This document shows positions 1-39,350 of a DNA stretch of 39,350 nucleotides, piece after piece. The DNA is taken from NCBI GenBank assembly GCA_051453625.1, contig JBOZIK010000001.1, positions 41,405,467-41,444,816 on the forward strand. Direction: 5' to 3'. This stretch comes from Welwitschia mirabilis (Eukaryota). The notes under the pieces are model-generated. The model was given only the letters and a program-made list of their open reading frames with translations, was not told where the DNA came from and did not search any database. The position numbers and the translations under genes were made by a program. The first letter of the stretch is position 1. Each line of letters opens with the position of its first letter.

Positions 1-691
1 TATCAAATTCTCAAAATCAAAATGATCGATTTAGAAATTCCATTAATGAATTATGAAAATATGAAAATCTTATTAATGATCTTTAACAAACTATGCTTGG
101 AAATCAATGACCATAATAATTCCTCATAATACAACCTTCACCATATCCTAATGAATTAAGAGAATATTATAATGTTATGACAAGAAATGAAAATGAAATA
201 ACACCTCATACCCATAAGGCTTTAACTTCTTAAAATGATAAGAATGATGAAGAAAAAGAGGATATTAAAATCTTAGATAATCATACTTTCCCTTCTTCTT
301 TAAGTGATAAGCTTAAAAATAAAAATTCTTTTCAAGATAAAGGTAAAAAACCTACTACCCCTTGGCTTAATAAATTAAATATCAATCCTACTTTGATGAT
401 TATATTAAAGCCTTAATACAAGATGTAAGAATAAATTTACCATTTTATAAACTCTTGCAAGAAAATCCTAAATATTTTAAATTGTGAAAAGACATAATTA
501 GAAAGAAATAAAAATATATTATAATTAGTAAAGTATTCCTAGCCTAATCTCTACCAACTTAGTTTTGTAAAAATATTTAAAATTTAAGGATCCAGGGGCA
601 GCAATAGTTCATGTCACATTAGAAGAAAATAAAAGAATAAAGAAAGCCTTAATCAATATAGGATCAAGTGTAAACATTATGCTTTTATACA
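1..691 (+). pseudogene. Gypsy gag C-terminus / aspartic protease N-half (degenerate)
   Basis: Translates as KFKDPGAAIVHVTL...IRKALINIGSSVNIMLLY, matching the ALxDLGxSVNxMP protease motif. Colinear with the second copy at ~23600-24120. Confidence 0.85.
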
Positions 692-1976
692 TGAAACATG
701 GATTGATCCTAGAGGGGGGGTGAATAGGTCATTATAAAATATTCATCCACCTTGAATACCTACAAATAAAAAGCAAATACATCACCAAAAGATCATAGAA
801 TGCTTTAATGGTGGATGGTCATTATCCTTTAGCTCTTAGACACCAAGTCTCTAGCTAGAATAAATTAATCTCAATGGTTAGTTTTTATGCTTGCTAAAAA
901 CCTATACAATTACTAGTGTATTTTGGGCATAATCACAATCACAGAAGAATGGATTTTACCTAGATGTACAAATGCACAGTTATGATCCATAGGTACAAAT
1001 GCAAAGCAAGCTCTTATAGACTATGTAATAAGAAGAACGAAAGCACAAGAGAAATCCAATCTTACAATCTTTTAAGCATAGTTCATACAGAACATGTAAC
1101 AGTGATAATGTATTTTGTATATCAAAATCTATCACATTCATTGATAAAAAGAAGGTCTTTAAATAGAGTAGTTAAAGATAGCCATTCAAAATGCCTAAAT
1201 GATTGTTAAAAATTGGTTCTACCTATTTTTGGTAAATTGTGAAAATGCAATGGCTATATTTAAAACATGTTGGATTAACCTCACAAGAATCTTGGTGCCC
1301 TAGTATTTGTTTCCCTTTAATAAATATTAGATTTCCCTTGATCAGTTTAGTTTAGTTTTTGATAGTCTACTTATTTGTTCATCCTTATGGAATCATTAGA
1401 TCACCTGTTTCTATTTCAGTTTTAACATTATTACTTCTAAACATTTAGTTATCCTAATAAAGAAAAGGGATTGACCTTATATAAGGTCACCAAAACTTTA
1501 ATGATTTGGTTAACCTCTTTTTGTCTATTTGCAGCTAGAAATTAGTCACCAGTGCATGTGTCATTAATTGCCATTACTATTAGTTAATTTGAAAATTTTT
1601 GAAAGAGATTTGGTCGCTCTTTAACATTAGTGGTCATTCAGCCACTTATTCCTTACTATATATTAGGTTTAGTCATGTAGTCACTCCACCTATGATAAAA
1701 GGTCACCCACATTGGAACCAGTCTCTAGCTAGCTAGTAGTTCGGTTACCTCATCTTGAAAACACATTCATTTGAGCCTAAAGCAATTTAATCTTACTGAC
1801 AATCCAGTTACTTGGGTTTTACCTTCTGATATTCCTCATGTTACTCAGTGTATGCTCATATGTCTGTTTAATCACCCATATATCTAGAGTGGTTGCCCAG
1901 TTCTAGAAAATCTCTACAAAATAACTATCTCAATAAAAACTCGTTAATTGATTAATGATAATAGGTTCTTTTAACA
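692..1976 (-). repeat. 3' LTR of the Sirevirus
   Basis: Begins TGAAAC and ends TTAACA on the + strand. Aligns end to end with 8807-10086. Confidence 0.92.
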
Positions 1977-1991
1977 AACTCGTCCTTTGTC
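1977..1991 (-). other. Degenerate polypurine tract of the Sirevirus
   Basis: - strand reads GACAAAGGACGAGTT|TGTTAA immediately before the 3' LTR, resembling the canonical AAAGGGGGAGATT PPT. Confidence 0.65.
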
Positions 1992-2329
1992 ATTGATTAA
2001 GAAAAATAATATTTTAAATTGCATGCTCATCTTTAATTAAATAATTTGGTAACCAATTCATATTATCATGAGTTTTCCTAGAGAAATAGAGGTATAAATG
2101 GTTTAGTCAAAAAACATTTCCATTTTCATAAAGAAAACATGATTTCCATTAACCAAAAGATGTGAAACATTGATACATCCAAAGAAGTATAATCTAGTCA
2201 TTAAATTTTATAAAATATATTTGACAAGCACATATTTCTTTTCCATTTTGATGAAATCAAGGAGAGGGAGTATAAAAAGAAAAAGAGACAACAAAAATCA
2301 TTTAGAATCAAAAGATTTTTTTAAAAACT

Positions 2330-3250
2330 AGTCACCCTTGCTCTGAGAAGTATTAGCTATAGGAGTACCACTAGCAATGAGTGTAGCCTTACTGTGCCAA
2401 GTGAGAGAGTCAAGGCAGTGCAACAGGTGAAGAACTCTACAATATAAAAGGCCTTGATCTTAAGCCTAGAAGAAGCAGCAGGTTCCTCAAAGATGTGCAT
2501 CCTAGATAGCATGGCATGATCAATAGGTCTCATGGGCTTCTGAACCTCATACCAAAAAAGATTCAGAATGCTAAAGTGACAACAAATTCAAGTAATAATA
2601 AATGGATATGATAACAGATACATCTTATAAAGCTAAAACTGGTTAACCATGTGTTTGAGCATAATGCTAGGAGCATTGATATTGCATATTCAATTCAATG
2701 AATAAAGAAGGAACACTTGGTAGTTGAAGATTTCATCTTTATGCTTGGGAACAGGAAGGAAATTATATGAAAGAATTAAATGTAAAAGATGAAACTTGCA
2801 AAGAAGTTAAGAAGCTTTAAGATTCTTTTTCCAGGTAATGAATATGCCACACACATGCTGAGTGGCAGCTTTCTTCTCTTTGAAAGATTCAGCTGTGGGC
2901 CAATATTCTCTCATATTCCCTTAAGGCAACCTAGTAAGGGAAGCTATTAGATCAGTAATGATGTGTATCTCATAGACAAAAATAAATGTAATGACTGTGG
3001 AATAAGTAGCATCAAAATAGGCATTTGAGTAAAATAACCTGGTGACCAAGGAATAGCATGTTCTTAAGATATGAAGAAAGTAACTCTAGTTTACCTTCTT
3101 AAGTAGGGTCTAGACTTTAATCAGACTAAGGAACTACACAGGTTTACAGGAACTTTTAATGGCAATGGAACTAGACTAAAAATTCATCTCATAGTGCTCT
3201 ATTTGCTCTAATCTCGTTCTTGTAAAAATGTAATTATAAGGTTTGATAGC
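2330..3250 (-). pseudogene. Sirevirus env-like / extra ORF remnant
   Basis: Manual translation gives CYSLVTRLFYSNAYF...EIHIITDLIASLTRLP and FHLLHLILSYNFLPVPKHKDEIFNYQVFLLYSL...INAPSIMLKHM, motifs typical of plant retroelement env-like ORFs. Lies between pol and the 3' LTR; many stops. Boundaries approximate. Confidence 0.65.
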
Positions 3251-3889
3251 AGACTCCTTTCTTTACTTTCTGAAATCCTCTCCAGACTATTAAAAAGCCA
3301 TTTAAAGACCCAATTCAAAGTTAAAAAGCTTGATAGAGGAAAAGAGTGGGCCACAGGAGCTAGAGAAAATGATAACCTTGAATAGAACAAATGAGGATTT
3401 GAAAAGAACATGCAAATTTAAAAACCATTGCATACCACCTTAAACTTAGGTGACCAAATAAATGGTCGGTCAATCCATGTGAGGTTTTAAAAATTAAATA
3501 GTAATGTGGTAGTTGACCATATACAAAATGTAGTCAACCTTATAAGAAGAAAATTTGATAGAAAAAACTGAGCTAATGTTGATCAACCCTAAGAAAAAAA
3601 GTGGTCGACCAGATTTAATAATAAGCTTAAAGAGGTTGACCTGATATGTAGGATTGATCAATCCATTAAAAAGAAAGTTAACAAGAAAAACTAAGATAAA
3701 TGAGGTTGACTTGATTAAGAAGGCTGATTGACCCAAAGTGAAGAGAAGTTTAAAAAGAAAAACTGAAAGACAAAAGGTCATCCCATAATACTAATAAGGT
3801 CGATTAGGGTTCATAGGAATATAATAAGGAAAGTTTTAAATCCACTAGTGGAACTCTAATTTTCAGCTAAGGCTAGGTTTTATAGGTCT

Positions 3890-6800
3890 TTCTTAGACAT
3901 GATACACAGAAAGTAATGAAGTACAGCAAAACAATCAGACAATAAAGATTTTGTAGAAATATCTACCAATTGATCTTAAGTACAAACATATTAAAATATG
4001 ATAATTTTCTTCTCTACCAAGTCTCAGATAAAATGATACCTGAGATTAATGTATTTTTTGTAAGTGTGTTGAACTATATTATGTATAATTTGAATAGCAC
4101 TGGAGTTTTCACATAGAATAATAACTTTAGAGATGGCTAGGCCATAGTCTTTTAAAGTTTCTTTCATCCATAGCATCTGAATGCAGTGAGTTCCAATAGC
4201 TATGTGCTCAGCTTCTGTTATAGATAGAGATATGGAACATTACTTCTTGTTGTACCTAGTGATAAAATTATCAAAGAAAAAAGCATTCACCACTTATGTT
4301 CTTTTGATCACCTTTTCATCCAACCCAGTCCACATCACTATAACCTATTAAACTTAGAGAAGTATTACTTAAATATCATAGATTAAAATCAAGAGTACTT
4401 TAACATAGTAAAGTATCCTCTTTGTAGTAGATAAATATGATTCTTTTGATTTACTTTGATACTTGGCACATAAACTAACACTCAGTGCTATGTAAGGATG
4501 ACTAGCTATTAGATACAATAGACTTTCAATAATTCTATGGTATATCTTTTGAACCACATCCTTTCTTTCTTCATCAAGAGAAAGTTTGACATTAATAGCC
4601 ATTAGAGAGTCCATACTTTTGGCATTTTTAAGTCTAAATTTTTTGATGAGATCTAAAGAGTATTTCTTCTAATTTATGAAGATACCATTTTTATGTTGTT
4701 GGATTTGAATATCTAAAAATATGTCAACTAGTCTAATCATACTCATTTTGAACTCAAATCTTATTAGAGTTATAAAATCATTTGATAAGCTTTCATTTGT
4801 TAATCTAAAAAATAATGTCATCTACATATATTTGAACANNNNNNNNNNNNNNNNNNNNNNNNNNNNNNNNNNNNNNNNNNNNNNNNNNNNNNNNNNNNNN
4901 NNNNNNNNNNNNNNNNNACAAGAAAAGTTTCTCATACCAAGCTCAAGGATATTGTTTTAACCCATACAAATCCTTGTTAAGTTTGTAGACATATTTTGGT
5001 TTTTGAGGATCAGAAAAGCCTTGTGGTTGTTTTACATAAATGTCTTTCTCAATGTGACCATCTAGAAAAGTACTCTTTACATCCATCTAAAAAACTTTGA
5101 ATTTTTTATAATAAGAAAAAGATAGAAACATTCTTATATACTCAAGTCTAATAGTAGGAGCAAAAGTGTCATCACAATCTACTCCTTATATTTGAGAGTA
5201 CACTTCAGCTACAAGCCTATCTTTCTTCTTAGTAATCTCATGTTTTTCATTTACTTTATTTCTAAAAATCCATTTTATGCTTATATCATTTTTTTCAGCT
5301 AGATTAGGAATAAGATACCACACCTAATTTTGAGAGAATTATTTAAGTTCTTCTTTCATTACATTTATTCAACATGGATCAGATTTAGCCTCCTTAAAAA
5401 TTCTTAGTTTCATCTAAGATAATAGAGAAATATAGGCATTAAAATCCTTAAGAGAGTTTCTAGTAACTATACCTTATTTCACATTTCCAATGATTGAATC
5501 CAAAGGATGATTCTTAGGCTCTTTAATTTCTGGTGCTAGGTTATCTTTTGAAACATCTCTATTTTAGTAAAAAGAAGAAAGAACTACATCATCATCTAGT
5601 TTAGAGGATTTTGTTGAATCAGGTACATCATGAATTTTAACATTCATAGATTCTTCCATATAAAAAATGTGTTTGTTAAACATTTTATAAGCTCTACTTA
5701 ATTAAGAGTATCCTAAGAAGATTCTTTTATTAGATTTAGAATAAAATTTAACCAGAGCCTCTCAATCTCTTAGGATGAAGCACTTACTTCCAAAGGTTTT
5801 CAAATAGGATATATTGGGCTTCTTCTCTTTCTAGAGTTTGTAAGGAGCTATGGAAATACCTAGTCGCAAATAAACTCTATTTGAAATATGATAAGCTGTG
5901 TTTACTACTTTAAATCAAAATCATTTTGACATATCTTTATCATTTAGCATAACTCTTGTCATGTCTAATAAAGTATGATTTTTTCTTTTAGCTATTCCAT
6001 TTTGTTGAGGAGTCTTTAGGGCTCAAAATTCATGGTCAATTCCATTTGAGTTGCAATAATATTCAAATATTTAATTCTTGAATTCTCTGTCATAATTACT
6101 ACAAATTTTCTTAATGACATACTGCTTTTTAGTTTGGAGTTTTTTGTAAATTCTAACAAAGTTGTCATAAGCATCGGACTTTGCATGAAGAAAGACTATT
6201 GGGGAAAATCTAGAAAAATCATCAACCATGACTAAAAAATATCTTTTTCCAGATAAGCTTATTGTTTGAATAGGGTAATCAAATCCATGTGAATTAAATC
6301 TAAAGGCTTGCTAATATTAATATCACTTATTCCTTTATGAGAAGCTTTGGTTTATTCCCCTCTTAGGCAAGCATTACATAAGTCTTTATGAGTAATAGAA
6401 AGTTTTAGAAGATCTCTTACAATCTTAACACAACATATTTTCTNNNNNNNNNNNNNNNNNNNNNNNNNNNNNNNNNNNNNNNNNNNNNNNNNNNNNNNNN
6501 NNNNNNNNNNNNNNNNNNNNNNNNNNNNNNNNNNNNNNNNNNNACCCAAGAGAATCTAGAAAAATCATCAACCATGACTAAAAAATATCTTTTTTTAGAT
6601 AATCTTATCATTTAAATAGGGCCAACCAAATTTATATGAATTAAACCTAAAGGCTTGCTAGTATTGATATTACTTATTTCTTTATGAGAAGCTCTAGTTT
6701 GTTTTCCTTTTTGACAAGCATCACATAAGCCTTTGTAAATAATAGAAAGTTTTGGAATACCTCTTACAATCTCACTATGATATATTTTCTTTAAATTTTT

Positions 6801-10086: not shown

Positions 10087-11447
10087 ATACATTTGTTAAC
10101 AACTTGGTTTAGAAAGTAGAATTAAGCCTACATCTATTATCTTAGAATTGGTAAATACATTAGTAAGAAACCTTTAGGAATAATAAAAGATTTGGGAATT
10201 TTAATTAATGAAGCTTTCTATCCAATAGATGTGGTTGTAATTGAAGTTGAACATAATAAAGATTATCCCTACTTCTAGGTAGATAATTTTGTGTAATAGC
10301 CTATTGTATTATTAATACAAAAACTGGAATGATGGAATGTCACTTAGGAAATAAAAAGTTTACCCTTAGAGTTTTTGATGCTACTAAAAAAAATCCTAGG
10401 TAATGAGTTCAATATTGAAGGAGAAATTAAGCCAACACTATTTTAATAACATCATCCACTTAAAGAAAGATGGTTAATGTTTTATGAGCTTATCTTATTT
10501 GATAATCCACTTAAAGTAAAAACTTAAAAGCTTTAAAAGATTATCAACTTAACTATGAGCATTTAGATACTAACTATTTTGATTAAAAGACTAAAATAAC
10601 TAAAACTACAATCTATGAAGAAGCACAACATCTAAAAACAACTAAAATTTCATATTTTTATGGAGGTCATTCGTCCTAATCATTCAAATGAGGTTCTGAG
10701 ATGACAGTCAACTTTGATTAAAAAATTAACAAAAACTAAAAATTTGAATTTAAATTTGAAACCTTTACTGAGTGGATTAAAATATATCTTTTTATGTGAT
10801 GATCAAAATAAATCATTGATACTAAATAAGAATCTTTTTCCTTAAAAAGAACCAATTTTAATCTCACTTTTGAATTCTAAGGTAAATGCATTTTTTTGGA
10901 ACCATAAAGATTTAACAGCCATTCCAACTTTCACTATTTAACATAAAATTCACCTTGAAAATAGTATAAAACCTATTAGTTAACTCCAATGTAGACTAAA
11001 TCTAGCCCTTCAACAAGTCATAAAGGATGAAATTATTAAATTAATAAATGTTGGAATTAAGAAAGGTGGAAGTGGAGAATGTGTATTGATTTTAGAAAGA
11101 TAAACAAAGTAATGAAAATAGACCATTGTCCTTTACCTTGTCTTAACCAAATACTTGATAGAATCTAAACACATGTATTTTATTGCTTTCTTAATGGGTA
11201 TAGTGGTTATAATGAGGTTTGTATCACTAGTGAGGATCAAGCTAAAATAACTTTTACTTCACCTTTTAGAACTTTTGTCTTTAGATATATGTCTTTTATA
11301 CTTTGTAATGCTCTTGGCAATTTTCAATGTGTAATGATAAGTATCTTTCTTAATATGTTAGAGGATCAAATTTAAATTTTTATGGAAGACTTCTTAATCT
11401 ATGGTGGAAACTTTGAACAAATCTTACAAATGTTAGAGAAAGTCCTT
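10087..11447 (+). pseudogene. Gypsy protease C-half and reverse transcriptase N-part (degenerate)
   Basis: Continues YIC*QLGLESRIKPTSIILELVN from 691. RT motifs WRMCIDFRK, DHCPLPCLNQILDR, YCFLNGYSGYNEV, LCNALGNFQCVM and IFMEDFLIYG. Confidence 0.9.
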
Positions 11448-11745
11448 CACTATAAGAAATATAGAACTTTAAAGCATTTTTAAAATTCCTTAAAAGTCTA
11501 TAAAAAATGCCTTTAGGGCTTTTAAGGAATTTCATCAAAAAATGCCTTTCAAAGCATCACCTTAAAACCCTAGATGATTTTAAGGCATTTTTAAGGTGTT
11601 TAATAAAAATCCCTTAAAAGATCTTTTAAGGCATTTTTTGTAAAGACACCTGGCAAGCCTTTTAAGGCACTTTTTATAATAAATGCCTCAAAAGGCTTTT
11701 CAAGTGTTTATTCGTTTAACCAAATAAATACCTCAAGAGGTATCA
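11448..11745. repeat. CACTA TIR plus subterminal repeat array (putative TnpA binding sites)
   Basis: Many direct and inverted copies of TTTTAAGGCATTT / AAATGCCTTAAAA variants. Confidence 0.85.
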
Positions 11746-13449
11746 CTTAGGTAAAAAGAAAATTACCATATAAAATGGTGGTTTTCTTTGAAAGATATAT
11801 GTCATTCGCATTTGCAAAAGTCATTATGATTTCTTTACAAATGTGATATGCAAGAACATATATCAGAGGAATTATTTTTATAAATTCTTAAATCTTACAT
11901 ACCATTGATTCATCTCCATTTTCTCTAGTCCGCTTCTACTCCTAACAAGCCAAATCCTTCTGTTCTACCCACATTAGGCACATAGAAAATTTTCCATTAA
12001 AAAAATGCAAAAACTAAAATGTTTTATGGCCAAACAAAAGTGAGAAAAATGTAGGAAGAGCAAACCCAATAAATTCAAAATCTTTAAAATTAATGCAAAG
12101 GTGTGAAACCTATAAAATTATCAAAAATCATCATCATATGCCTGGCTATGGTCCTTCCTCATTTGCATGATCACTGCTCTACCTGTTGATCTAGCTGACA
12201 TCAGTAAGAAGGCCATGCCTTGAGATCCAAAGTCAAGTTGGGTGTACATAAATATTATTCTTTTTTTTTAAAAGTATCTAGCGAACCCCTCTTAATGTCA
12301 AATTCCTAAACGCATGAATTTAACACTAGAATTATTGGAACATGCCTCTAGCATAGCATGATAAGACTTGAGACAAATTTTTCAAAGGATATGAAAGACA
12401 TTATCAAGAATAATAAGGAGCTTTATGAAAGACAATAATAAGGGACCAAACTTAAAATGAAACTTGGGATAATAATTTGAAGACCACTGCAATAAGAGAG
12501 ACATCTCAAGCTTTAAATATATTCAGCATTCCAACCTACCTTTCATTAAAAGTTTATCTCCTTTTACTTGGTGATATTTCGTTGTGGCAATCTTCAGCTT
12601 TTTCATTTCCAAAGCAAGACAACTTCTGCTTTTAATGGTTCTTCATAGGCTTCCCCACTTAAAACTCTCGTTTAGTGCCTCTATGTTACTGCTTATACAA
12701 GATGCTTCACGTTAATCTATTGAGATTGCCTCGAAGTGTAACTTCCTTTCCTTGAATCCTCTATATCACGTGATGGATGAAGATCAATGAGATGAGGGCA
12801 AGATGATGCTGTAGCACTCCTTCAAAAAATCCATCACAAGAGTTTTGTTGTTCAATCAAGCGGGTTAGATGCTCTTCAATGCATCTTTCACTATAGAGAA
12901 CTTAAAAGAAGGATCATGAGATCAAATCTACCATTCAAAGATGAAAATCGCTCTACAACTCAATTTTTATAGAGTATTTTTTATTATGTTACAACAAGAT
13001 ATGTATTTGTTTGAGTTTTGAGAAAGTTTTAAGCCTCTAATCCAATCACTATTTTCAAGGATTCCTTACATGATAGCCATCGCTCCTTCTCCAGCAAATA
13101 ATAATAATATTCTTTTCAAATTGCGTATTTGGAAAAGGCATGCTGAGCCTCATAAATTATACAACCCAACAAGGGATAAGAAAGTGAAGTTATAGAATTT
13201 GAACAACACATCACTCATGTCATAAATACATATGTCATACATCTAAAGAGATATCCCATCAAATTTCAATCGATGATAATTTTTTTATGCTATCAGTCCA
13301 CTAACAAGATGTCTTTACAATACTTAAATGAAATAAATTAAATAAAAGAGATTAGTATGACAAACAATGGATACAAAATTGTCACTTATTGATAATATTA
13401 GCAAGATCCAAGAATAGTTCATTATAACTAAACACCTCTTTATTAGTGT

Positions 13450-13915
13450 TCAAATAGAAATCAAGTTACCCAATGGAAATCAAGCAATAATGCCACATCC
13501 CGCTGTTAGGTCAAATTGTCTTAGATACATGATTACTTCTGGAATTGGAAGATAGACATAGTGTGTGTTACAGATTCCCACTATAATACCACTGAAACCA
13601 GTAAAAGCTCCATAGACAGCATTTTGTCCAAGGACTTTGTAGACTATTCCATCAGATGTATTAGTGTGAATTGCATGTATCATGCAGGTAAGATCAATGT
13701 ACTTAACATCTGCAGGCATGCTAATTCACTTGAAGTGTTTCTTGGCCTGCTGCTAAAAGTGAATACTAATATCATTTAGAATAGGATTTCTTGAAGGATC
13801 TGTTGCGTTTTTTTTTTTTTTTTTTTCAAACAACTCCCATCCTGCTCCTTTGTTAACACAGATAACTACAAATCCTTTTGATCTTAATAAATTCTCAAAA
13901 TGCATTAGCAACCTC
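13450..13915 (-). pseudogene. PFK5: Captured fragment: C-terminal part of ATP-dependent 6-phosphofructokinase, PFK5-like
   Basis: LLMHFENLLRSKGFVVICVNKGAG...NATDPSRNPILNDI...ADVKYIDLTCMIHA...VLGQNAVYGAFTGFSGIIVGICNTHYVYLPIPEVI matches the plant PFK5 C-terminus (DVKYIDPTYMIRA...VLGQNAVHGAFAGFSGITVGICNTHYVYLPIPEVI). Has stops and frameshifts; no intron seen. Confidence 0.88.
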
Positions 13916-14234
13916 ATCAAAGTTCATTAGTGTACTAAAGTATTCATAATATCATTAGGATGCTCATCAGTCTGCTCACTAGTTTGTCCTGCTTCTCCAC
14001 GTCTAGTGAATCAAGAGTATCGTCAGAAAGTAAGATGTAGTTATCACGGCCTGGAAAGTTATTTATAGTTGTTGCCTGAATGTCACTATCTTATGCATAG
14101 TTTGCTAAGAAGTGAAAAAGAGAAAAAAAAAATACAAGATGGGCTATAAGCCAAATACAGAGATCACAAAATGATTGAAGAGGAAAAATATTGCAACTGA
14201 GCTAAGAAAACAGAGGATGCGAAGGAAGGAAACG

Positions 14235-15030
14235 ATGGAGGTTGAAATTGTGAAGTTACTGAATGACAAACAAGAATACAAGACGATAGTTCTTTCAAAC
14301 TACTTGAAGATCCTTCTTATCAGTGATCCTAAAATGGATACGGCTGCTACAACTACGAATGTATCTACTAGGGCATTTAGTGATCCAGATTCTTAGAAGG
14401 CTTGGCTCACTTCCTAGAACATGTGTTTTTTCTATGCAAGTGAGAAATATCTTTTGGAAGATAACTACATAAAATATCTTACAAAGCATGGAGGGAAATC
14501 AAATGCATTCATTGATGGTTGATGACTAAATCAGTTGTAAAAACATCTGATTTTAGTAGATCATACCTATCACAAATTTAGTACAAGAAACTTGGAAAGT
14601 CTCGATGTTCATGCTCGAGAAAGAGGGTTAGATATTAGACATGAGCTGCTTAAGTTCTACAATGATCATTACTCAACAAATCTTATGCACCTTGTAGTAT
14701 ATGGGAAATAGAGCATTGAAAAACTTGAAATAATGATGGACTCCAAGTTTAGTGCAATAAAAAAAAAATACTTAGAAGTCTTATTTATATTTTATGAGGA
14801 AACCTTGTCATGATGAACATATACAGATCTTGGTAAAATGTGTTCCTATGAGGGAGAAGCATACCCTGAGCATTTTATGGTCTATCACTCCTAAGCCAAA
14901 ATTCTCAAAGGAAGGGCCTTCAAAACATCTTGGCCATCTTATTGGACATGAAGCAGAAGGATCCTTATTTCCTTTGCTTAAAAGCCTTGATTGGGTAAGC
15001 AGCTTGAGTGTAGGAAAAACAGGAGAATAA
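14235..15030 (+). pseudogene. Captured fragment: N-terminal part of insulin-degrading enzyme-like M16 metallopeptidase (PXM16/IDE-like), intronless
   Basis: MEVEIVKLLNDKQEYKTIVLSNYLKILLISDP...LEGLAHFLEHVFFYASEKY (HxxEH at 14408-14422)...HKFSTRNLESL...NLMHLVVYGK...HLGHLIGHEAEGSLF. Has frameshifts, stops and an internal deletion at ~14513. Confidence 0.92.
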
Positions 15031-15780
15031 TAGGGAAGTTCATAAACTTACACTTGTATTAAACATGCTCAATCAGTGCATTATTTACTCAATTTTGTCT
15101 TCACTAATTATGGAATGTACATGTTAATGTGCTATTGCCTTATTTTGGATTGAGTTTGTATGAGAAGTATACTAGTGTTGGAAAGAATTACAACCTTTAT
15201 CAAGAATTCCAAGTGATGGAAATATTGATATTTCAAGTCGTTTGATACATTAAAAGCAAACACATGCTCATCTCATGCATTAATAAGAAAGCTTTAGGAT
15301 GCCAAAAAGATCAAAATGAAGATAAAAACTTTAAAGAAAACATGTTCATCCTGAGAAAGCCCCAAGGTTTTATCATCCTGAGAGTCATAACATTGCCTAG
15401 ATGTTCCTTTTGGAAGTACTACTACATTTTCAAATTGTTAGTCACACTGTTGAACTACATTGTGTAGGCTAAAACATGTCGATTAATTGAGATAATTCTT
15501 TTAAAGAGTAATTTCAGATTAACTTCTCCATATTGATAAAATGTGCAAGATTCATTATATTTAGGTGTGGCTGTACTAATCAAGATTTTAGTTTCTTTGT
15601 AGAATTCTCCTTCTCTATTATCTACACATAATGGCAAAGTCAGCGAATTAGTATGTGGTAGTATTTTCAAAAATGAGCAAAGCACTAGAGCTTAAAATAA
15701 TTGAAGGCTTTAAATTTAGTGGAGTAAATAGCTTCTACTATAGGTAGAAAGTTAATGCATGACACTTGTTGGATCATTAC

Positions 15781-15979
15781 TTGCATCCAATTTAAATTAC
15801 CTTCTTTAGCTTCTTGATAGATGTACATGACAAGCTAATTGATCTTTCCCTATTGAGAAATCACAAGAGGAGAACAAATCCCACTGCATCCATCACTTGG
15901 CTGAGAATCAATAGAAATACCAGTAAAATCATATCCTCTGTATTCTAATCTCTTCAAACCATTAAACAACCTCTAGAAT
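15781..15979 (-). pseudogene. GFAT: Captured fragment: N-terminal glutaminase domain of glutamine:fructose-6-phosphate amidotransferase
   Basis: Manual translation ILEV/FNGLKRLEYRGYDFTGISID...PLVISQ*GKIN*LV matches the GlmS/GFAT motif GLxRLEYRGYDSAGI. Not in the ORF track. Confidence 0.85.
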
Positions 15980-17574
15980 GTGCTTCTTGTTGATGATAAG
16001 AGCTTTGGCAAATTCTGTCTTAAAAATGCCTTGTCTATGCTTGAAGAATATAAGCAAGCATTTTCTTCCTCTAACTCCTCAAGTAAAGCCACTATTTGAA
16101 TTATTATGCACATGCACATCCTTAAAACCTTTTCATTCTTTAATATATGTTAGGACTATATCTAAAGAAGTAACTCGAAACATTCTTAACTAGACTTTAC
16201 TTGGGCATAACTAAACAACTCATGCTATCATTAAGGAATGAACTTAAGAGCGAGCAAAGATGGCAATAATCCAACTAATGGCACTAGCAGTGACATTATT
16301 AAGTAGCATCTCAAAGAGAAGGGACAGAACAGTTTCTAGAAAGCCATTTAATTTGTTATTTGAAATGTTTACTCTATGGAGATGATTTAGTAATGACACA
16401 GATCAAGAAATTGAACAAATGTTTTCATTTTTTTTTTTTTTTTGTTGGACAAGCTAGTTCCTCTCTTGCCCAATGAATTGATTGTACTACCATCTAAGAA
16501 GGAAGAAAAATTAGATATCCAACAATAGCATGGTCAATACTCAGATGAAGGAAATAATAATCTTGGACATAAGAAATTCCCCATAAATTTTTCATCTTCT
16601 ATAAATGTATTCAAATTTTAGGTAGTTTTATGGGAATCATTTTCACCATCACCACACTCTTTATTTTGGTTGTTTCTATTGCAATCCCATTAAACAAGAA
16701 GTAGGATTCATCTGCATGCCATCAGATCTATTCTTTCAATACTCAAAAGAAAAACTTATAAAAGCTCAGGTTGGATCATTTTGTAATAAAAAACCTTAGG
16801 ATGTCAAAACTGTACTATTATTACATGGCTTGGATCCCAATTCCTTCTTCTTTCTAAGAGTTCTCATTGAAATTGCTGTTAAGGGCCTTCATACTATGGC
16901 CCTTGATTTGTTAACTTTGATTTTTCAGATAAAATGGGTTTCTACAGGGACGAGAGATGTGATGAACTCATTAGAAGAATTTGAAATGATTATCTATAGA
17001 TCAAAGAAAAGAGAATTTTCTACAGCTTTGAACATATTTTAGAAACTAAATAATGTGATATGTGAAGGCACAAGGTTTTAAGGTAAATATGAACTGATAT
17101 CCATTGGATCGCAGTGCCAGTGAATTAAGCTAGAACTTAGAATAAGTCAATGAAATATTCCCAGTTTGGTTCCTCAAGTTGTCTTAAGTTTCTTTCTTTG
17201 CTTTAAACTTGAAAGTAAAGTCAGATTTGAAGTATTCAATGAGAAAATTCAAAGGAAACGTAAGCTCCAAGAGCTAAAAAAAGAATTGTGCCATTTTGTT
17301 TAGCTTCTCTGACCTGCACTCTAGTATGCTAAATCCAATGATCTACTAAAACAAGGAAAGTAATCACAGATTGGCTAATGAAAATTTACACAACTTAGTA
17401 ATTTTCATCACCATAAGAAATTAGGAGATCTACAAAAACTAGGGTTCTTTGTAATCAAAAGAACAGTGAACATACTATATAAAAACAAATAATAACTAAT
17501 AAAGCACATCCAATGTTTAGCTAAATCTTTAAGCATAGAAGAACTTGCAGCTCATGCACTATGTATACCTTAGC

Positions 17575-17745
17575 TGATTCGCGATGCATAAAAGTAAAAA
17601 GACCTTCACCAATCCTTAAAGCAAAAAGACCTTGACCAATTCGTGATGCACAGAAGTAAAAAGACCTTGGTCGATTCTCTGATTCTTGACAAACAAAAGC
17701 AAAAGACCTAATCGATTCTCTGATTATTGACACACAGAAGCAACC
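17575..17745. repeat. Degenerate short tandem repeats (~27-41 bp units, core AAAAGACCT) inside the Pack-CACTA
   Basis: Four to five imperfect units of the form GATTC...AAGYAAAAAGACCTT. Confidence 0.6.
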
Positions 17746-17979
17746 CGTGTATTATGTTTTTGAAGGAATGCGCATGAAGACCTTATTAGGACACACACCG
17801 CCAAATACCCAATGCAAAAATGCATGGCCACCTTTGCCACTGGTCTCTCATTTGCAACTAGCCATGTCGCTTGTTCTTAATACACAAAAGCATCCTATGC
17901 ATTATGTTTTCAAAGAAATGCACACGATGATTCTATTTTTATTTTTGGCAATGCTTTTACTTTTGTGTTTGCTATAATA

Positions 17980-18217
17980 CGGTGTTTTTAAGGCATTTAT
18001 CCTATCATTGTAAGGCGTTTTTAAGATCAAACTTAGCGTTTAAGGCCTTTTTCTTATTAAATTCCTTAAACGATCAATCAATTTGATTTGGCAAAAGGCC
18101 TTCAAAAGAGCATCATTGTTTTTATTCAAGGTTTTTATTAAAATAAATGCCTTAGAAATCTTTTAATTAAAGCGTTTATTTTAATAAATGCCTTAAAAGC
18201 CTATTTTTCTTGCTTTC
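17980..18217. repeat. CACTA subterminal repeats and damaged right TIR
   Basis: TTTTAAGGCATTT / AAATGCCTTAAAA copies ending in CTATTTTTCTTG (18201-18212), the near reverse complement of the left TIR. Confidence 0.82.
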
Positions 18218-20265
18218 CTTGATAGATGTATTAAGAGTGGCTTACATTTGAGTTGGGAGAAGAGTTTATTTTTAGTTGATAATAGAATTATCTTAAGTCA
18301 TTACCTTTCTAGTAAATAAGTTAGGATGAATCCCAAAAATGTATTATTAAAAACCTAACTCCTTAAACAAATGTAAAACAAGTTCAATCTTTCCTTGGTT
18401 ATTGTGATTTTTATTATCATTTTATTCAATATTATGCTAAAATTTATAAATGCTTTCACTTGTTACTTGAAAAAGAATCTAAATTTGAATGGAACAATTA
18501 TTGTTAGCTTGCTTTTGAAACAATTAAAGATAAAATCTCTTCCACACCTATTGTAATAGGACATAATTGGAATAAAGATTTTGAATTAATATGTGATGCT
18601 AGTAATATTGTCATGGATATGGTTCTTGAACAAAAATATAAAAACGATTTTAAAGTTATATCTTATCATCGCAAAACTTTATCTAAAGCTCAATCAAATT
18701 ACACTACTAGTGAGAAAGAAATATTAGTAATAATCTTTTACCTTATATACTTAAACACTATCTTTTAGGCTTTCATATAAATGTTTATACCAATCATGCA
18801 GCTATTAGATACCTTATAATCAAGAAATATTTTAGTGCTACACTCATTAGATGGATCCTCTTCATGCAAAAATCTAATATTACCATAATTGATAAAGCAA
18901 GGAAGCATAACAGTGTAGTAGATCATTTGTTATGTCTTTCTTCTTCTCTTGATGATCTTGTGATTGATGATTCTTTTCTGAATGAATAACCTTTTTCCAT
19001 ATCTTCTACTCATCCTCATAACCTTTTTCCATATCTTCTACTCATCCTCCTCCTTGATATGCTAACATATTTAATTATCTTATTACTATGAAAACATCAC
19101 AACATTGGACTTATAATCAGAGAAAATCATTTCTTCATAGAATCACTAATTATGAATAGAGCCACATCTTTACTGTAGGTGCAAAGACCAAATCATGAAA
19201 AAATATATATGCTCAAATCAAAAAAATTAGACATCCTTAATCTTTGCTATGGTGGTGTTTATAAAGGTCATTTAAGTCGATAGAAAATAATATTAAATAT
19301 TCTTTACTCTGTTTTTTATTGGCCTAGTCTTTTTTGGAGTTTTTTTTATTTTGCTAGAAGGTGTGATATCTGTCAATGTTATGATAACCATATTCATTTT
19401 CATGATATGTTTCTTAAATTTATTCTTGAAGGTAAACCTTTTAATTATAGGCCCTATTACACCACCTTATAATCATAAGAATTACATTTTAGTGTTTGTT
19501 GATTATGTTACTAAATGGATTGAATCTATTTCTACCTTTATGAATGATGCCCGAACTATTTATACTTCTATTAAAACTCATATTTTTCAATGTTTTGATT
19601 TTCCTAGAATTATCATTATGATCAAAGAACTCATTTTATTAATTAACTTTTAAGGAGACTTCTTTTATCCATTGGAATTGAACAGAGAATAGCTTATGCT
19701 TATCATCCACAAACTAATGGTCAAGCAAAAAATGCAAATAGAGAAATATAGAAAATGCTATAAAAACTTTATCTCTATTAATAAGAAATCTTGAGCTTCT
19801 AGTCTTAATGATGTTCTTTTAGCTTACCATGCTACTTGGCATAATTTTCTTGGTTTTTCACCTTATGAACTTATGTACAAAAAAGTTTGTGTTTTACTAC
19901 TTAATGTGTGTTATATCGTTCTTCTTATCAACTTAATCTTTAGATCTTCATAAAAATATTAAAAATAGATTATTCCAACTTACTTACTTAAATGAAAAAT
20001 GTACTCATGATATACATTGTCAACTCATTCACAAAATCTAATCTAGATTCAAACATGAGAAAAAGTTTCTTTATTAAAAGTTTGAGTAGGGTCAACTTGT
20101 TCTTTAATACAACGTTAGAGTACATATTTTACATAATAAGTTTACCTCTAAATGATTAGATCCTTATCTTATAAAGCAAGTACATTCTAATGGCTCTGTT
20201 AAGATTACTGACTTAGACACTAATAAGATTCAGAAAGTTAATGGATAAAGGTTGAAAATATATGA
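18218..20265 (+). pseudogene. Gypsy RT C-part, RNase H and integrase (degenerate)
   Basis: LSWEK, VQSFLGYCDFY, FELICDASN, NYTTSEKEILVI, YILVFVDYVTKWIESI, AYHPQTNGQAKNANREI and KVNG*RLKIY. Confidence 0.92.
18986..19049. repeat. Perfect 32-bp tandem duplication
   Basis: ATAACCTTTTTCCATATCTTCTACTCATCCTC twice. Confidence 0.9.
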
Positions 20266-24715: not shown

Positions 24716-26949
24716 NNNNNNNNNNATAGAAATCTTTCAACCAATAAAAATCTTTTACCAAAGTTACCATTAATCTTTTCTTTAACTTTCAAAATTTTTA
24801 CTTTAATGTGGTCTCATAGAGTGTTTCCATTATCCCTCTTTCCATCCAATTGATTTTACTTGAAAATAATTGTACATGTTTTATGTTTTATCAATTGGTA
24901 AATTTTTGGTTTGGAATTTATTTCTCTAAAAGAATGCAATATCTTGAGACCAAAATAGATTCTTAAATTTTTCTTCGTTCTCTTCAATAAAAGTGTGATT
25001 AGACTTTTAGGATTTAAGTAAAATTTGCTTGCTTTGATATTTATTTTTTGGCTTTCATGGTTCTTTTAATTATGCATTTTCAGCTTTCTATTTTGATAGT
25101 CTCTATTTTTATCTTTCTGATTTTAGTTTTTGTTTCTATTTGTAGTTTGTATTTTTGTTTTTATAATAATAATCTATCATCTTCTCTATTGTTCTCATGA
25201 CAAACAAGGCAATAGTCATCTTTTTATTATCTATTTAAGTTTTCTATGTTCTATTTCTATTATATCTATATGTCGTCCTCTTTCTCATCTAGACAACTAG
25301 TAGGATGATAGTTGTTAATAAATCATTTTTATTTTCTATTATTTTAAATAAAATACATTTTTATATCTCTATTGAGATTTTTGACTTAACTACTTAAGAT
25401 TTCAGGAAGTAAACGGGTGAATTTTAAAATTATTTGAACACACCATTTGAATTTTCTCTTATCTTTTTGGTTTAGAGATTATTATGGTATTACTTGATCA
25501 TTTTCAAACCTGACTTATGTATTTGTCTCCATGATTAATATTTTGACTTTGGCATTTTAGTGGTAATATTGGATTCCCCTAATCTTAGGCCATCACACAT
25601 TAATGAACTTCATTTTGAAGGAAAATTCTTTATTTTTCACTAGTAGAAAGGTCTTAGATTATTTAAAAAGTGTTCTTTTCTATCTTTATTTTACAACTTT
25701 CACCTTTATATTTTGGGATGTTTAGTTATGTGGAATGTGTTTTATGCAAAAAAAAAAAAAAATCAAAGAATGAAATAAGACCATGATGTTTTTCATTTAT
25801 AATATTTCGAAAACATGGTTGCTATGATATCTTACCATAAGTACAAAAGGCAAATATTTATGAGAGGAGCCTTTAGCAGTTTAATATAGTAGCTATGTGA
25901 ACTCCACTAGGAGGTCAGTTAGCCATGCTTCACAGGTCCTTACTTCTCTAGTGATAGCTACACTCCCATCATCATGGACAATAAATTTGTAATAAAAACC
26001 TTGAGCCTATGGGAGTAGTGATATTCCTAGTATCATCAGAGCATTACTTATTTCCTAGACTCTTATTCCTTCCACATGCTCATTTCATTTCATGATATTT
26101 GGGTGTTAGTTTTGAGATAAGGGTAGGAGAGTTCAATTTTGAGCAATTCTTTGGTTTGATCATTCTTTTTATCTTCAACGTTATCATAATCACTATCTTA
26201 TCAAATGAAATTTTTTTATACTTCAAGTCATGCATTTTCATATTAAGTGATGTTATCATTTCTTTCATAGAGTATGCTAGATTAAAATCTTAGATAGATG
26301 GACTATCTTTTGATTCTATTATGCCCATTTTGTTTGTCTTCATTTGTGGTCTAATTAGTTATTTTAAAGTAATTACATATTTTCTTATCATGTTTTTCTT
26401 ATTCAGTTTTTAATAGAAGTAGATTTCTTGCTTAGTTAAGTTTTCTTAATAAATTTTATGATGTTTGTTTTTAGATTTTTTGTGTTATAAGAACTGTTCT
26501 TAATCATTTTTGTAATGAAACATTTTTATTATCCACTTTTTTTTTTTTTTACTCGTTAGAATATTTCATAGATCTATATTTTTCAAATCTAACATTACTT
26601 AGCTTTGCACTTTATTTAGAAAGTTATTCTTTTTTATCTGCCTTCTCACTCCTATTTATTTTCTTTGCTCTACTTTCCAATACAAGATGTATTACTTTTC
26701 TTTGAGGAAGATAAGCACACATTTTCATGGCTTATTTTCAAAATTTTTAACTTAATTTAGATCTTTCATGAGATAAAATTTTCAAATTTTTATACACATT
26801 ATACATTACTTGTTATTTATCTATGTGATGTATTTTATTAGCCTATTTTATAATTTCCAAATTTATCTTTTGAAAAAAACAAATTGGCTCGCAATTATGG
26901 TTTTTCGCTTGGTTTTGTTAAGGAGTGACAAAGGCTAAGTAGAGGGCTA

Positions 26950-31721: not shown

Positions 31722-32085
31722 TACTATAAGAAATATAGGATTTTAAGGCATTTCTAAAATGCCTTAAAAATGCTTTAGTTCTTTTAAGGTGTTTCTTCAA
31801 AACACGCTTTAAAAAACATCTCCTTAAAATCCTACATGCTTTTAAGCCATTTCTAATGCTTTTAAGCCATTTCTAATGCTTTTAAGGCATTTCTAAGATG
31901 TTTTTATTAAAACACATTAAAAGACCTTTTAAGGTGTTTTTATGAGAAACGCCTCAAACATCTTTTAAGGTATTTCTTGCAATCAAAAGGCTTTTGAGGC
32001 ATTTCTCACAAAAAATGCCTCAAACACCTTTTAAGGTGCCTCGTAAGGCTTTTGAGGTAGTTTATTATATAAAAACCTTAAATCC
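31722..32085. repeat. CACTA TIR and subterminal repeats, including a 20-bp x3 tandem at 31836-31896
   Basis: TTTTAAGGCATTT-type repeats; ATGCTTTTAAGSCATTTCTA three times. Confidence 0.85.
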
Positions 32086-32860
32086 TTTCCCATGGATGAA
32101 AAAGAAAAAATCAAAGCTATGATTTACAATAATAGAATCTATAGACTAGTAACAGAACCTACACTACAATGTATACATTACATTTCTCAAAAATCAAATC
32201 TGTGATTTACAATAATAAAATCTATAGACTAATAATTTTGTTTAAAACATTTTCATAGCACACATTCTTTCATAACCAACAACAAATTCATAAACTTGAA
32301 AACTAAGATTGTGAAAAAAGTAAAGGAGCAGGTAACGCCTTAATCATGGAATGTGGAATTAAGAAGACATCTTGATGTACATTCTTAGAAGTATCACTAA
32401 CAAAAACTGTAAAAAGAAAATGTACTCATAATCAAATTCATAGACATATCTAACAACATCTATGTGGAGAAAATCTACATCACATAGGAATTTGAAACCA
32501 AAATATGAAGTATAAGTAGCACATTATGGAGTTGTATCACACAAATTTTACAATAAATGATACCATAGCATAATTGAATTTGAGCTACCATACACAATTT
32601 GCATATAATCATGTGATGATCAATTTATATCATCAATGGCATAGTATTTCCTACTTCAATACCTCAAACCATCTTTAATAAATTTTAATCAATGGATGCA
32701 TTTATGAATTAAATTTATGCATCTATGGAAAAAAAACTCAATTTTCACATTAGCCAATGACCCAAGACACAAGTCTTGCATAGTTTCAATATTTTAGAAA
32801 TTCTTAACAAAGAGTACACTTTCACATAAAATATTGAATGACTACAGTATATTTTCGTAG

Positions 32861-35145: not shown

Positions 35146-35761
35146 ACACATTATAAAATATCCAATTAATAAAAACCAAAAAAGTAATGGAAAGCCTACT
35201 CTTAAACATCTATCCATTATTACCTAGAATAGTATCAAATATTCTTTGCTCTTGTCATGTAGAATCATTAACATTCTTAAAACTTTAAGAGAAAGAACTA
35301 TTTATGAGTCAATGACATTCCAAAACAAAACTTAGTTTTAATACATGTACATGTAAAATATAGTAATAAAACAATATGCTTATTGGTAAATCATGTAATG
35401 TTAAAAGTTTCCATGTTNNNNNNNNNNCCTCTCTCTTTTGTACTTATAAGAAGACTCTTATCCCTCGACATATGCAATGCAGATGTTTGTACTTAGAAGA
35501 TACCTAAAAAAAAAATAAATCTATATCAAGAAGGTTATATTAATTACTACAATTAAATCAACTAAGAGTAGCATGTACTAATTATTCAAAACATATAAAG
35601 AACGTGATGATGGTTTTCAAAATTATCCAATATAATATGATTTGCTAACTTATATTTTCAATTACAACCTATATTTTCATAATTCAATTCTACAAAGTGA
35701 TGTAAAAATAAATACTATGATGTATTAAAAAATGATTTAGCAACTTGCCCANNNNNNNNNN

Positions 35762-38700: not shown

Positions 38701-39350
38701 NNNNNNNNNNNNNNNNNNTGAGTATTTGATGCATGCCCATCTGGAAGTGTCAACTCTAATAACATATTGAGACAAGAATTCTTTTCTTGTACTAACATCA
38801 CAAAACTAGCAGGTGGAAGGAATGCCTTTTTATCATCACTTATCATAATGGATGAAAGATCATCTCTGATACCTAGCTCTTTTAGATAAAATTGTGCTTC
38901 AAGCTTATCCTTTGATTTTCCTTTAATATTTAGGATAGTGCTGAGCAAGCTCTCACAGACAGTTATTTCAATATGCATAACATCCAAATTATGTCGAACA
39001 TCATTTTCCTATGTACATCTTNNNNNNNNNNNNNNNNNNNNNNNNNNNNNNNNNNNNNNNNNNNNNNNNNNNNNNNNNNNNNNNNNNNNNNNNNNNNNNN
39101 NNNNNNNNNNNNNNNNNNNNNTTCCTTTAATATTTAGGATAGTGCTGAGCAAGCTCTCACAGACAGTTTTTTCAATATGCATAACATCCAAATTATGTCG
39201 AACATCATGTTCCTATGTACATCTTAAAAATGAAAAAGGTATTAACTGAAATCATAAGAAAGAAAAATAATTTATTACTAAACTATTTTATAAACTTTTA
39301 TTACCTCCTAATATGTGAGATTAAATAGTATTTATCTCTTTTTCAATCTA
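35762..39350 (-). pseudogene. CACTA TnpD transposase remnant (C-terminal half), multi-exon, broken by assembly gaps
   Basis: VRHNLDVMHIEKTVCESLLSTILNIKGKSKD, LPDGHASN, LCDLERIFSSSFFDVIMYLAIHLVRE...RWMYPIER (DUF4218-type), EGCILEAFLIEKALSFC, and INGYRFH...QNSGV. Confidence 0.9.

Follow-up and report, generated by a model that had tools for sequence, protein, structure and literature searches.

How does a DNA transposon come to carry pieces of several unrelated enzyme genes, with coding sequence that runs on where introns would be expected? The question is raised by a 6.8-kb element at positions 11448..18217 of a stretch of 39,350 nucleotides (nt) from Welwitschia mirabilis (contig JBOZIK010000001.1); this whole stretch is called the window below, and all coordinates refer to it. 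A preliminary description had taken the element for a Pack-CACTA that lies in a gypsy retrotransposon and carries fragments of PFK5, IDE and GFAT. Our analysis points, with fair probability, to an old non-autonomous Pack-type CACTA element in the reverse transcriptase (RT) region of a gypsy retrotransposon, with cargo that derived from reverse-transcribed transcripts or processed pseudogenes and was aboard before the element moved. Reads from three DNA runs were used, X1 (which may be the source sample), X5 (organism B, another study) and X9 (another study), together with an RNA run, X17, of which about a quarter was covered.

Termini and insertion site of the element

The element opens at 11448 with CACTATAAGAAAT, and the sequence from this position onward, CACTATAAGAAATATAG, begins with CACTA, as expected of the 5' end of an En/Spm superfamily member. 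The 5' terminus and the 5' subterminal repeat region together occupy 11448..11750 (+). The terminal inverted repeat (TIR) is identical at 11 of 13 positions to that of En1 (CACTACAAGAAAA) and, likewise, at 11 of 13 to that of soybean Tgm1 (CACTATTAGAAAA), both as given in Table 2 of PMC3193017. When the two ends of the element were compared as inverted sequences, positions 7-40 were complementary at 26 of 34 places, a level reached by none of 20000 random 34-mers from the window; the outermost positions 1-6 were complementary at only 1 of 6. The 3' end does not finish with the TAGTG of the CACTA superfamily. Its last six nucleotides (18212..18217, +) are GCTTTC, and ATAGTG is found there in other members of the family: in X9, 19 reads departed from the window at 18211 and ran on as ATAGTG followed by varied flanks. 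The normal 3' end of the family is therefore TTTCTTATAGTG, and the tip of the copy at 11448-18217 has been altered. We read GCTTTC as damage to one copy and not as an argument against CACTA membership; with such a tip, this copy is probably immobile.

The subterminal regions contain a repeated 13-nt motif, AATGCCTTAAAAG. With up to 2 mismatches allowed, the window has 23 copies of it where 3.29 would be expected, a count that none of 100 shuffles reached. Within the element, the terminal 300 nt hold 7 copies on the 5' side and 5 on the 3' side, and the 6170 nt between them hold 0. The clusters typical of CACTA elements are thus present at both ends and in both orientations, and the repeats pair as inverted copies across the element (pairs I2-I5). 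The 3' subterminal repeats and the 3' inverted repeat extend over 17940..18217 (+), adjoined by direct and tandem repeats at 17567..17940 (D2-D4 and D9; a 41-nt unit in 2.0 copies). Among the 59 stop-to-stop open reading frames (ORFs) of at least 40 amino acids (aa) in the element, none matched a transposase family (Pfam, E up to 0.1), in agreement with the preliminary description; the element is therefore non-autonomous.

On the left, the element is preceded by CTT at 11445..11447, or by TCCTT if the duplication is taken from 11443, and on the right it is followed by CTT at 18218..18220. Other gypsy copies have a single TCCTT at this place, and a 5-nt duplication of TCCTT fits equally well as one of CTT. 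The target-site duplication of CACTA elements is given as 5 nt in rice and maize (PMC8903248) and as 3 bp in Arabidopsis (PMC6379663). Of the boundaries drawn in the preliminary description, then, the 5' end, the subterminal repeats and the CTT duplication (with TCCTT as an equally good fit) stand, and a correction is needed at the 3' tip, which is not canonical.

The host sequence is the pol region of a Ty3/gypsy retrotransposon. The part before the insertion (11040..11447, +), translated through its stops, matched the Ty3 RT (4ol8) in a phmmer search (E 1.4e-13); Pfam RVT_1 on the same part gave E 7.8e-4, below the curated cutoff. After the insertion, pol resumes at 18221..18986 (+) with the end of RT followed by RNase H, as assigned by Pfam (RT_RNaseH_2 at 18508-18765, E 3.2e-17; RT_RNaseH at 18714-18986, E 6.6e-6). 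The pol frame rejoins over the element once one copy of the duplication is taken out, which bears out the exact rejoining claimed earlier. Reads from other gypsy copies confirmed the empty site. In X1, 22 of them departed from the window at 11447 and ran on as GATAGATGCATTAAAAG, and reads entering the window at 18216 (30 in X1, 21 in X9) arrived from TTAGAGAAAG; contigs of other gypsy copies read through the insertion site as TTAGAGAAAG joined directly to TCCTTGATAGATG. From the departing and entering reads, the uninterrupted target is GAAAGTCCTTGATAG, with the duplicated bases present once. That the host frame rejoins exactly and the duplication is single shows that a unit with these two ends inserted in one event. 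Copies of the host gypsy family are extremely numerous: over the flanks (11000-11447 and 18218-18700), word depth was at least 10^4 in each of the three DNA runs, where unique sequence gave about 5.

The termini of the element are also highly repeated. Word depth, which is used here as a contrast only and not as a copy number, was 680-5077 in X1 over 11257-11770 and 3393 over 17939-18195, compared with about 5-10 over 12542-15111; the termini were thus 100-1000 times deeper than the interior. Over the internal repeat zone (17425-17681), the depth was 84-121. The PFK/IDE part of the interior lies at unique-sequence depth, and only the termini are highly repeated. Joints linking the two subterminal regions (11601>18178, 11609>18179 and 11704>18186) were present in two or three runs and look like short members of the element's family.

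Gene fragments in the interior

All three host genes named in the preliminary description were found between these termini, and in the mixed orientations reported there: PFK on the minus strand, IDE on the plus strand and GFAT on the minus strand. Pfam applied to single ORFs detected M16_C only, and weakly, and missed PFK, GFAT and RT.

The IDE-like M16 peptidase fragment (14235..15021, +) corresponds to residues 1-92 and 147-315 of P0001, a protein of 1005 aa with four M16 domains (tblastn E 4e-84; protein search E 5.4e-34). Its best solved relative is human IDE (PDB, E 3.2e-12), and Pfam Peptidase_M16_C was matched at E 1.7e-6. The fragment contains 7 stops, and its frame slips by 1 nt at 14763. 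Its coding parts of 276, 249 and 258 nt represent residues 1-92, 148-230 and 230-315 of P0001 with nothing between them, so that 783 nt of coding sequence run uninterrupted, minus one in-frame block of 54 residues (93-146). RNA reads of the parent gene run into this block: 15 of them departed from the window exactly at its start, at 14511, and ran on with codons for TGSEHTNFHF, its first residues.

The PFK5 fragment (13454..13911, -) is likewise uninterrupted and corresponds to residues 391-540 of P0003, a Cryptomeria PFK. Positions 13911-13510 aligned with residues 391-521 (tblastn, 67.9% identity over 134 aa, E 4e-51), and the C-terminus carries on to 13454 past a frameshift near 13510-13525; there are 4 stops. 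The match had E 1.5e-4 against PDB and E 1.2e-25 against plant PFK5 proteins, and those matches that carry a name are ATP-dependent 6-phosphofructokinase 5, chloroplastic. Among 120 PFK proteins ranked by similarity, the two best were conifer sequences (Cryptomeria 67.9%, Araucaria 66.4%), and the remaining 28 of the top 30 were at or below 61.9%. By this similarity, the host would probably be placed among gymnosperms, near the conifers. A run of 19 T at 13808-13826 encodes KKKKK where relatives have one or two lysines, so that the A-run has grown by slippage in the dead copy.

The 402 nt of PFK at 13911-13510 are unbroken over the positions after GAGQ and before TKK. Between these positions, one and the same block of 30 residues is missing from the gene models of Camellia (P0060), Fragaria (P0089) and Glycine (P0106). 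Another sequence, P0066, lacks a 39-residue block (P0003 residues 341-379), and in P0024 and P0075 the preceding block is absent. Most simply read, and judging from protein sequences, the dropped blocks would mark exon junctions. A tentative upstream piece of PFK lies at 14016..14045 (-), where DNYILLSDDT is aligned with DNDILLMDKT of P0003 (residues 312-321); 7 of 10 residues are identical (E 0.1 in a small targeted search), a weak match whose backing is collinearity and strand. From this piece to 13911 there are 104 nt, where 90 nt would be expected without the 39-residue block and 207 nt with it. Loss of the block therefore fits the spacing better than its presence.

The third fragment is an N-terminal part of GFAT, about residues 3-80 (15793..16045, -). 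Positions 15972-15793 matched residues 22-73 of human GFAT1 (PDB) with E 3.8e-5, and the preceding residues (..GIFKTEF..KKHILEV) are found in another frame up to 16045. The frameshift lies near 15968-15972, and there are at least 2 stops; contigs from X1 and X5 have an extra AA after 15967. A 40-aa ORF from this fragment had no match at E <=0.001 in a set of 5.8 billion proteins. Further on, 16046..16248 (-) runs collinear with the part of the GFAT parent transcript that precedes the start codon, as seen from the depth of X17 RNA reads in bins 15883-16396. Collinearity with the parent mRNA breaks off at 16248, where 6 reads have a loose end with an agreement of 0.99. The GFAT piece is too short to inform on introns. 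Beyond it, a run of T on the plus strand (A on the minus strand) occupies 16424..16443, and reads were cut at 16417-16453; this run may possibly be the poly(A) remnant of a minus-strand piece.

In both X1 and X5, 15112-16650 was read 2-6 times as deep as the PFK/IDE part, and the spacer and the GFAT piece therefore probably exist in a few other copies. From X9 there is a 400-nt contig (14809-15196) that runs past the end of IDE, with a similarity of about 97%.

With 4, 7 and at least 2 stops, respectively, plus frameshifts, the PFK, IDE and GFAT pieces are all pseudogenes. We compared them with transcripts in X17, in which 144 reads fell on the element stretch: 136 at 90-95% identity, 7 at 95-99% and 1 at 99% or more. 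As many as 105 of the 144 lay only partly on the stretch, and together they cover the PFK, IDE and GFAT pieces. Reads that are 90-95% alike and run into sequence absent from the element derive from the parent genes, and expression of the element itself left no sign in X17 (1 of 144 reads at 99% or more). The listed differences between RNA and window amounted to 15 in 152 nt for IDE (14599-14750) and 11 in 132 nt for PFK (13523-13654), both counts being lower bounds. At 58 places the window has A or T and the RNA has G or C, against 22 places with the reverse. A copy that is silenced and methylated is expected to show such a bias. Decay of the cargo amounts to about 8-10%, skewed from G/C to A/T, and the cargo is without a function of its own.

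Origin of the cargo

Both the IDE piece and the PFK piece follow spliced mRNA collinearly, without introns, and each appears to lack an exon-sized block. For these reasons the cargo is most likely reverse-transcribed or processed, and capture at the DNA level from resident genes is not the best reading of it. We infer introns in the parent genes at these places, cargo aboard at transposition, and the following route of acquisition. Pieces of cDNA or processed pseudogenes would have been built into the element before it moved, plausibly by filler or template-switch repair synthesis, or else by mobilisation of the DNA between two neighbouring insertions, as in the model of Catoni et al., which here would capture a patch of processed pseudogenes. 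Loaded with three dead gene pieces (the C-terminal third for PFK5, codons 1-315 for the IDE-like M16 peptidase and the N-terminal end for GFAT), and dependent on an autonomous relative as it encodes no transposase, the element would then have moved as one unit into the RT region of a highly repeated Ty3/gypsy retrotransposon, making a short target duplication. That the cargo was aboard at this insertion is the simplest reading. The 3' tip would have been altered afterwards, and excision would probably no longer be possible. In Arabidopsis, aberrant excision of Pack-CACTAs leaves immobilised copies with damaged termini (PMC6379663), and by analogy the altered tip resembles such damage.

The operational definition of Pack-TYPE elements used by packFinder (PMC8903248) asks for TIRs with a target-site duplication, no transposase match and matches to coding genes, all of which are found here. 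To that extent the name Pack-CACTA holds, and a classical origin, in which genomic pieces of the resident PFK5, IDE and GFAT loci were captured at the DNA level, has to be weighed. Expressed parent genes do exist, as seen from RNA reads at 90-95% identity; the IDE homology stops after ...ACAG at 15021, which is compatible with the end of an exon that an intron could follow; and the GFAT piece, taken alone, is short enough for one exon. DNA-level transduplication, however, retains introns, as do the captured fragments of soybean Tgm-Express1 (PMC1947982), whereas 783 nt of IDE and 402 nt of PFK are coding sequence without an intron, and the PFK piece spans two junction-like positions of three angiosperm gene models. 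We regard classical capture as improbable. The lack of introns would also fit another rival, in which a plain non-autonomous CACTA element entered the gypsy RT first, and the gene pieces, as processed pseudogenes or other DNA, were inserted or repaired into it later and were never carried anywhere. At least one Pack-TIR pipeline classes intronless cargo as retroduplication and discards it (PMC8277862). The single depth of the PFK/IDE part against the highly repeated termini, the coding 3' end held by the PFK piece as in 5'-truncated retrocopies, and the A/T runs at 16424-16443 and 12262-12271 could all be cited for late arrival. Yet at least three independent events within 3 kb would be required, and the raised depth of 15112-16650 suggests that part of the cargo is present in other copies. 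Moreover, IDE and GFAT are 5' parts of transcripts without their 3' ends, unlike target-primed retrocopies, and neither clear poly(A) tails nor, by eye, flanking duplications could be seen. Since IDE and GFAT lack their 3' ends, later insertion into a resident element is disfavoured, and we consider it unlikely. Compared with processed pseudogenes in general, the cargo has the intronless state of IDE and PFK, but only PFK is anchored at its 3' end, and the A/T runs are short or ambiguous.

Several points weigh against cargo of processed origin carried in by the element. The parent introns are deduced, those of PFK from angiosperm isoforms. IDE-like genes are multi-exonic, and the introns of the IDE parent are deduced on that basis. 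DNA contigs were considered for placing the introns of the parents and were rejected, as aligned pieces may end through divergence or because contigs are short. The upstream PFK piece is weak (E 0.1). The mixed orientation and the missing 3' ends of IDE and GFAT are unlike ordinary LINE-type retrocopies; clear poly(A) tails and duplications flanking single fragments were not found, the latter looked for by eye and not by a systematic search. The presence of the cargo at insertion is likewise a deduction. Finally, none of the listed contigs crosses the 3' junction, and none spans the whole element. The last point would also serve an assembly artefact, in which the interior was misjoined between CACTA ends of different copies, as would the high repetition of both termini and the nine runs of N in the window (4839-4917, 6444-6543, 24716-24725, 35418-35427, 35752-35761, 36065-36979, 37980-38185, 38524-38718 and 39022-39121). 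None of these runs lies within 11448-18217, however, and the host frame and the target duplication rejoin exactly. Contigs from X1 tiled 11412-18141 with 0 base differences, leaving 11800-11995, 15838-16065 and 17432-17627 outside the pieces listed. The contig at 11412-11799 extends over the 5' junction into 36 letters of flank and shows 0 differences, and a contig of 2693 nt covers 11996-14672. Two indels were noted in X1: one of 16 nt after 13129, and another with 22 gap letters inside the contig 11412-11799. Eight pieces from X5 also showed 0 base differences, of which 11418-11628 reaches 30 flank letters, one short of the criterion, and X9 supplied further pieces matching the interior. A misjoin is, in our judgement, highly improbable. 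The indel at 13129 is a 16-nt tandem duplication of the neighbouring bases, present in contigs of both X1 and X5 and absent from the window.

Related copies and known systems

Elsewhere in the window there is a second CACTA-like 5' end (31722-32090), TACTATAAGAAATATAGG, identical to the tip of the element at 34 of 40 positions. It has its own dense cluster of the subterminal motif, and shares only about 270 nt with the element, at 71% identity. No matching 3' end was found for it within the window, and none of its 20 ORFs matched a Pfam family. packFinder keeps clusters of related elements and drops singletons as possible false positives; here, repeated termini, short members and the end at 31722 were seen, and the PFK/IDE cargo stands at unique depth. 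The suggestion that the element represents an undescribed multi-gene capture family, with this cargo in common, is not supported. A metagenome scan with the 17-nt TIR returned at least 115 loci. In the 400 nt behind the TIR, 114 of the matches listed had no copy of the subterminal motif and 1 had a single copy, and every one of the matches listed was put down to chance, with no family member among them. A literature search with the TIR string returned no matching paper on transposons, as judged by title.

The segment at 11771..12284 is present in a moderate number of copies (depth 148 and 64 in X1, 203 and 111 in X5). No protein match was accepted for it. An ORF at 12124-12267 (-) was considered as a fourth gene fragment. 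In a search of 1.84 billion representatives it matched one protein alone, a bacterial FG-GAP repeat protein (E 2.2e-4); the match runs through the repeats of that protein and was dismissed as chance.

Capture of several genes by one element has already been published in soybean, Arabidopsis, maize, rice and wheat. The soybean CACTA element Tgm-Express1 (Zabala and Vodkin) is 5.7 kb long and carries five gene fragments, introns included (PMC1947982). Like it, the Welwitschia element is a non-autonomous CACTA of similar size (6.8 versus 5.7 kb) with fragments of several unrelated enzyme genes and no transposase, and its TIR resembles that of Tgm1, a relative of Tgm-Express1, as noted above (PMC3193017). 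Tgm-Express1 differs in that it holds exonic and intronic regions and that splicing brings its fragments into a host transcript as cassette exons (PMC1947982); the Welwitschia element has intronless IDE and PFK pieces, lies in a dead retrotransposon and shows no expression of its own. With Arabidopsis Pack-CACTA1a and its relatives (Catoni et al., PMC6379663) it shares CACTA-type termini, a 3-bp target-site duplication, the lack of a transposase and cargo that stems from the chromosomes. The Arabidopsis elements differ in being mobile in epigenetic recombinant lines and in having both exons and introns in what they carry; the route proposed for them, mobilisation of the DNA between two neighbouring insertions (PMC6379663), would not by itself explain intronless cargo.

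In grasses, 140 capture events by CACTA elements were reported on wheat chromosome 3B (PMC4290129), and maize Pack-CACTAs carry the most distinct loci (PMC8903248). Like the Welwitschia element, the CACTAs of wheat 3B, maize and rice contain gene fragments, often from several loci, and the captured copies are mostly pseudogenes (PMC4290129, PMC8903248). These sets are genome-wide catalogues, and intron status is not addressed in the portions of the two reports on which this comparison draws. The cargo can also be set beside processed pseudogenes and chimeric retrocopies. It is intronless like them, and its PFK piece retains the coding 3' end without the 5' part; it departs from them in the 5' parts of IDE and GFAT, the mixed orientations, the lack of clear poly(A) tails or of duplications for each fragment, and the ends of a DNA transposon. 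Intronless cargo is the one departure of this element from the textbook Pack-CACTA. Within the passages that our literature search covered, we found no description of such cargo in a CACTA element, though supplementary tables may list such cases.

Since multi-fragment elements are known in many plants, the element adds little as a Pack-CACTA. Of some value is that its host stands nearest to the conifers by the PFK piece: in the passages on which we draw, gene fragments captured by transposable elements in gymnosperms are catalogued in bulk (PMC13477047), and single elements are not dissected. A more speculative thought, which we hold to be rather unlikely, is that the CACTA family may load its cargo from RNA, by template-switch repair on spliced and partly exon-skipped transcripts or cDNAs in either orientation. 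If true, such loading would turn a cut-and-paste DNA transposon into a carrier of intronless exon mosaics, and would be a route of exon shuffling apart from DNA-level transduplication and LINE-type retroposition. A single decayed copy cannot settle the question of RNA-derived cargo, but it gives a concrete test case. If many DNA transposons carry intronless cargo, their share in the movement of processed sequences would be underestimated, as the pipeline described in PMC8277862 discards such cargo.

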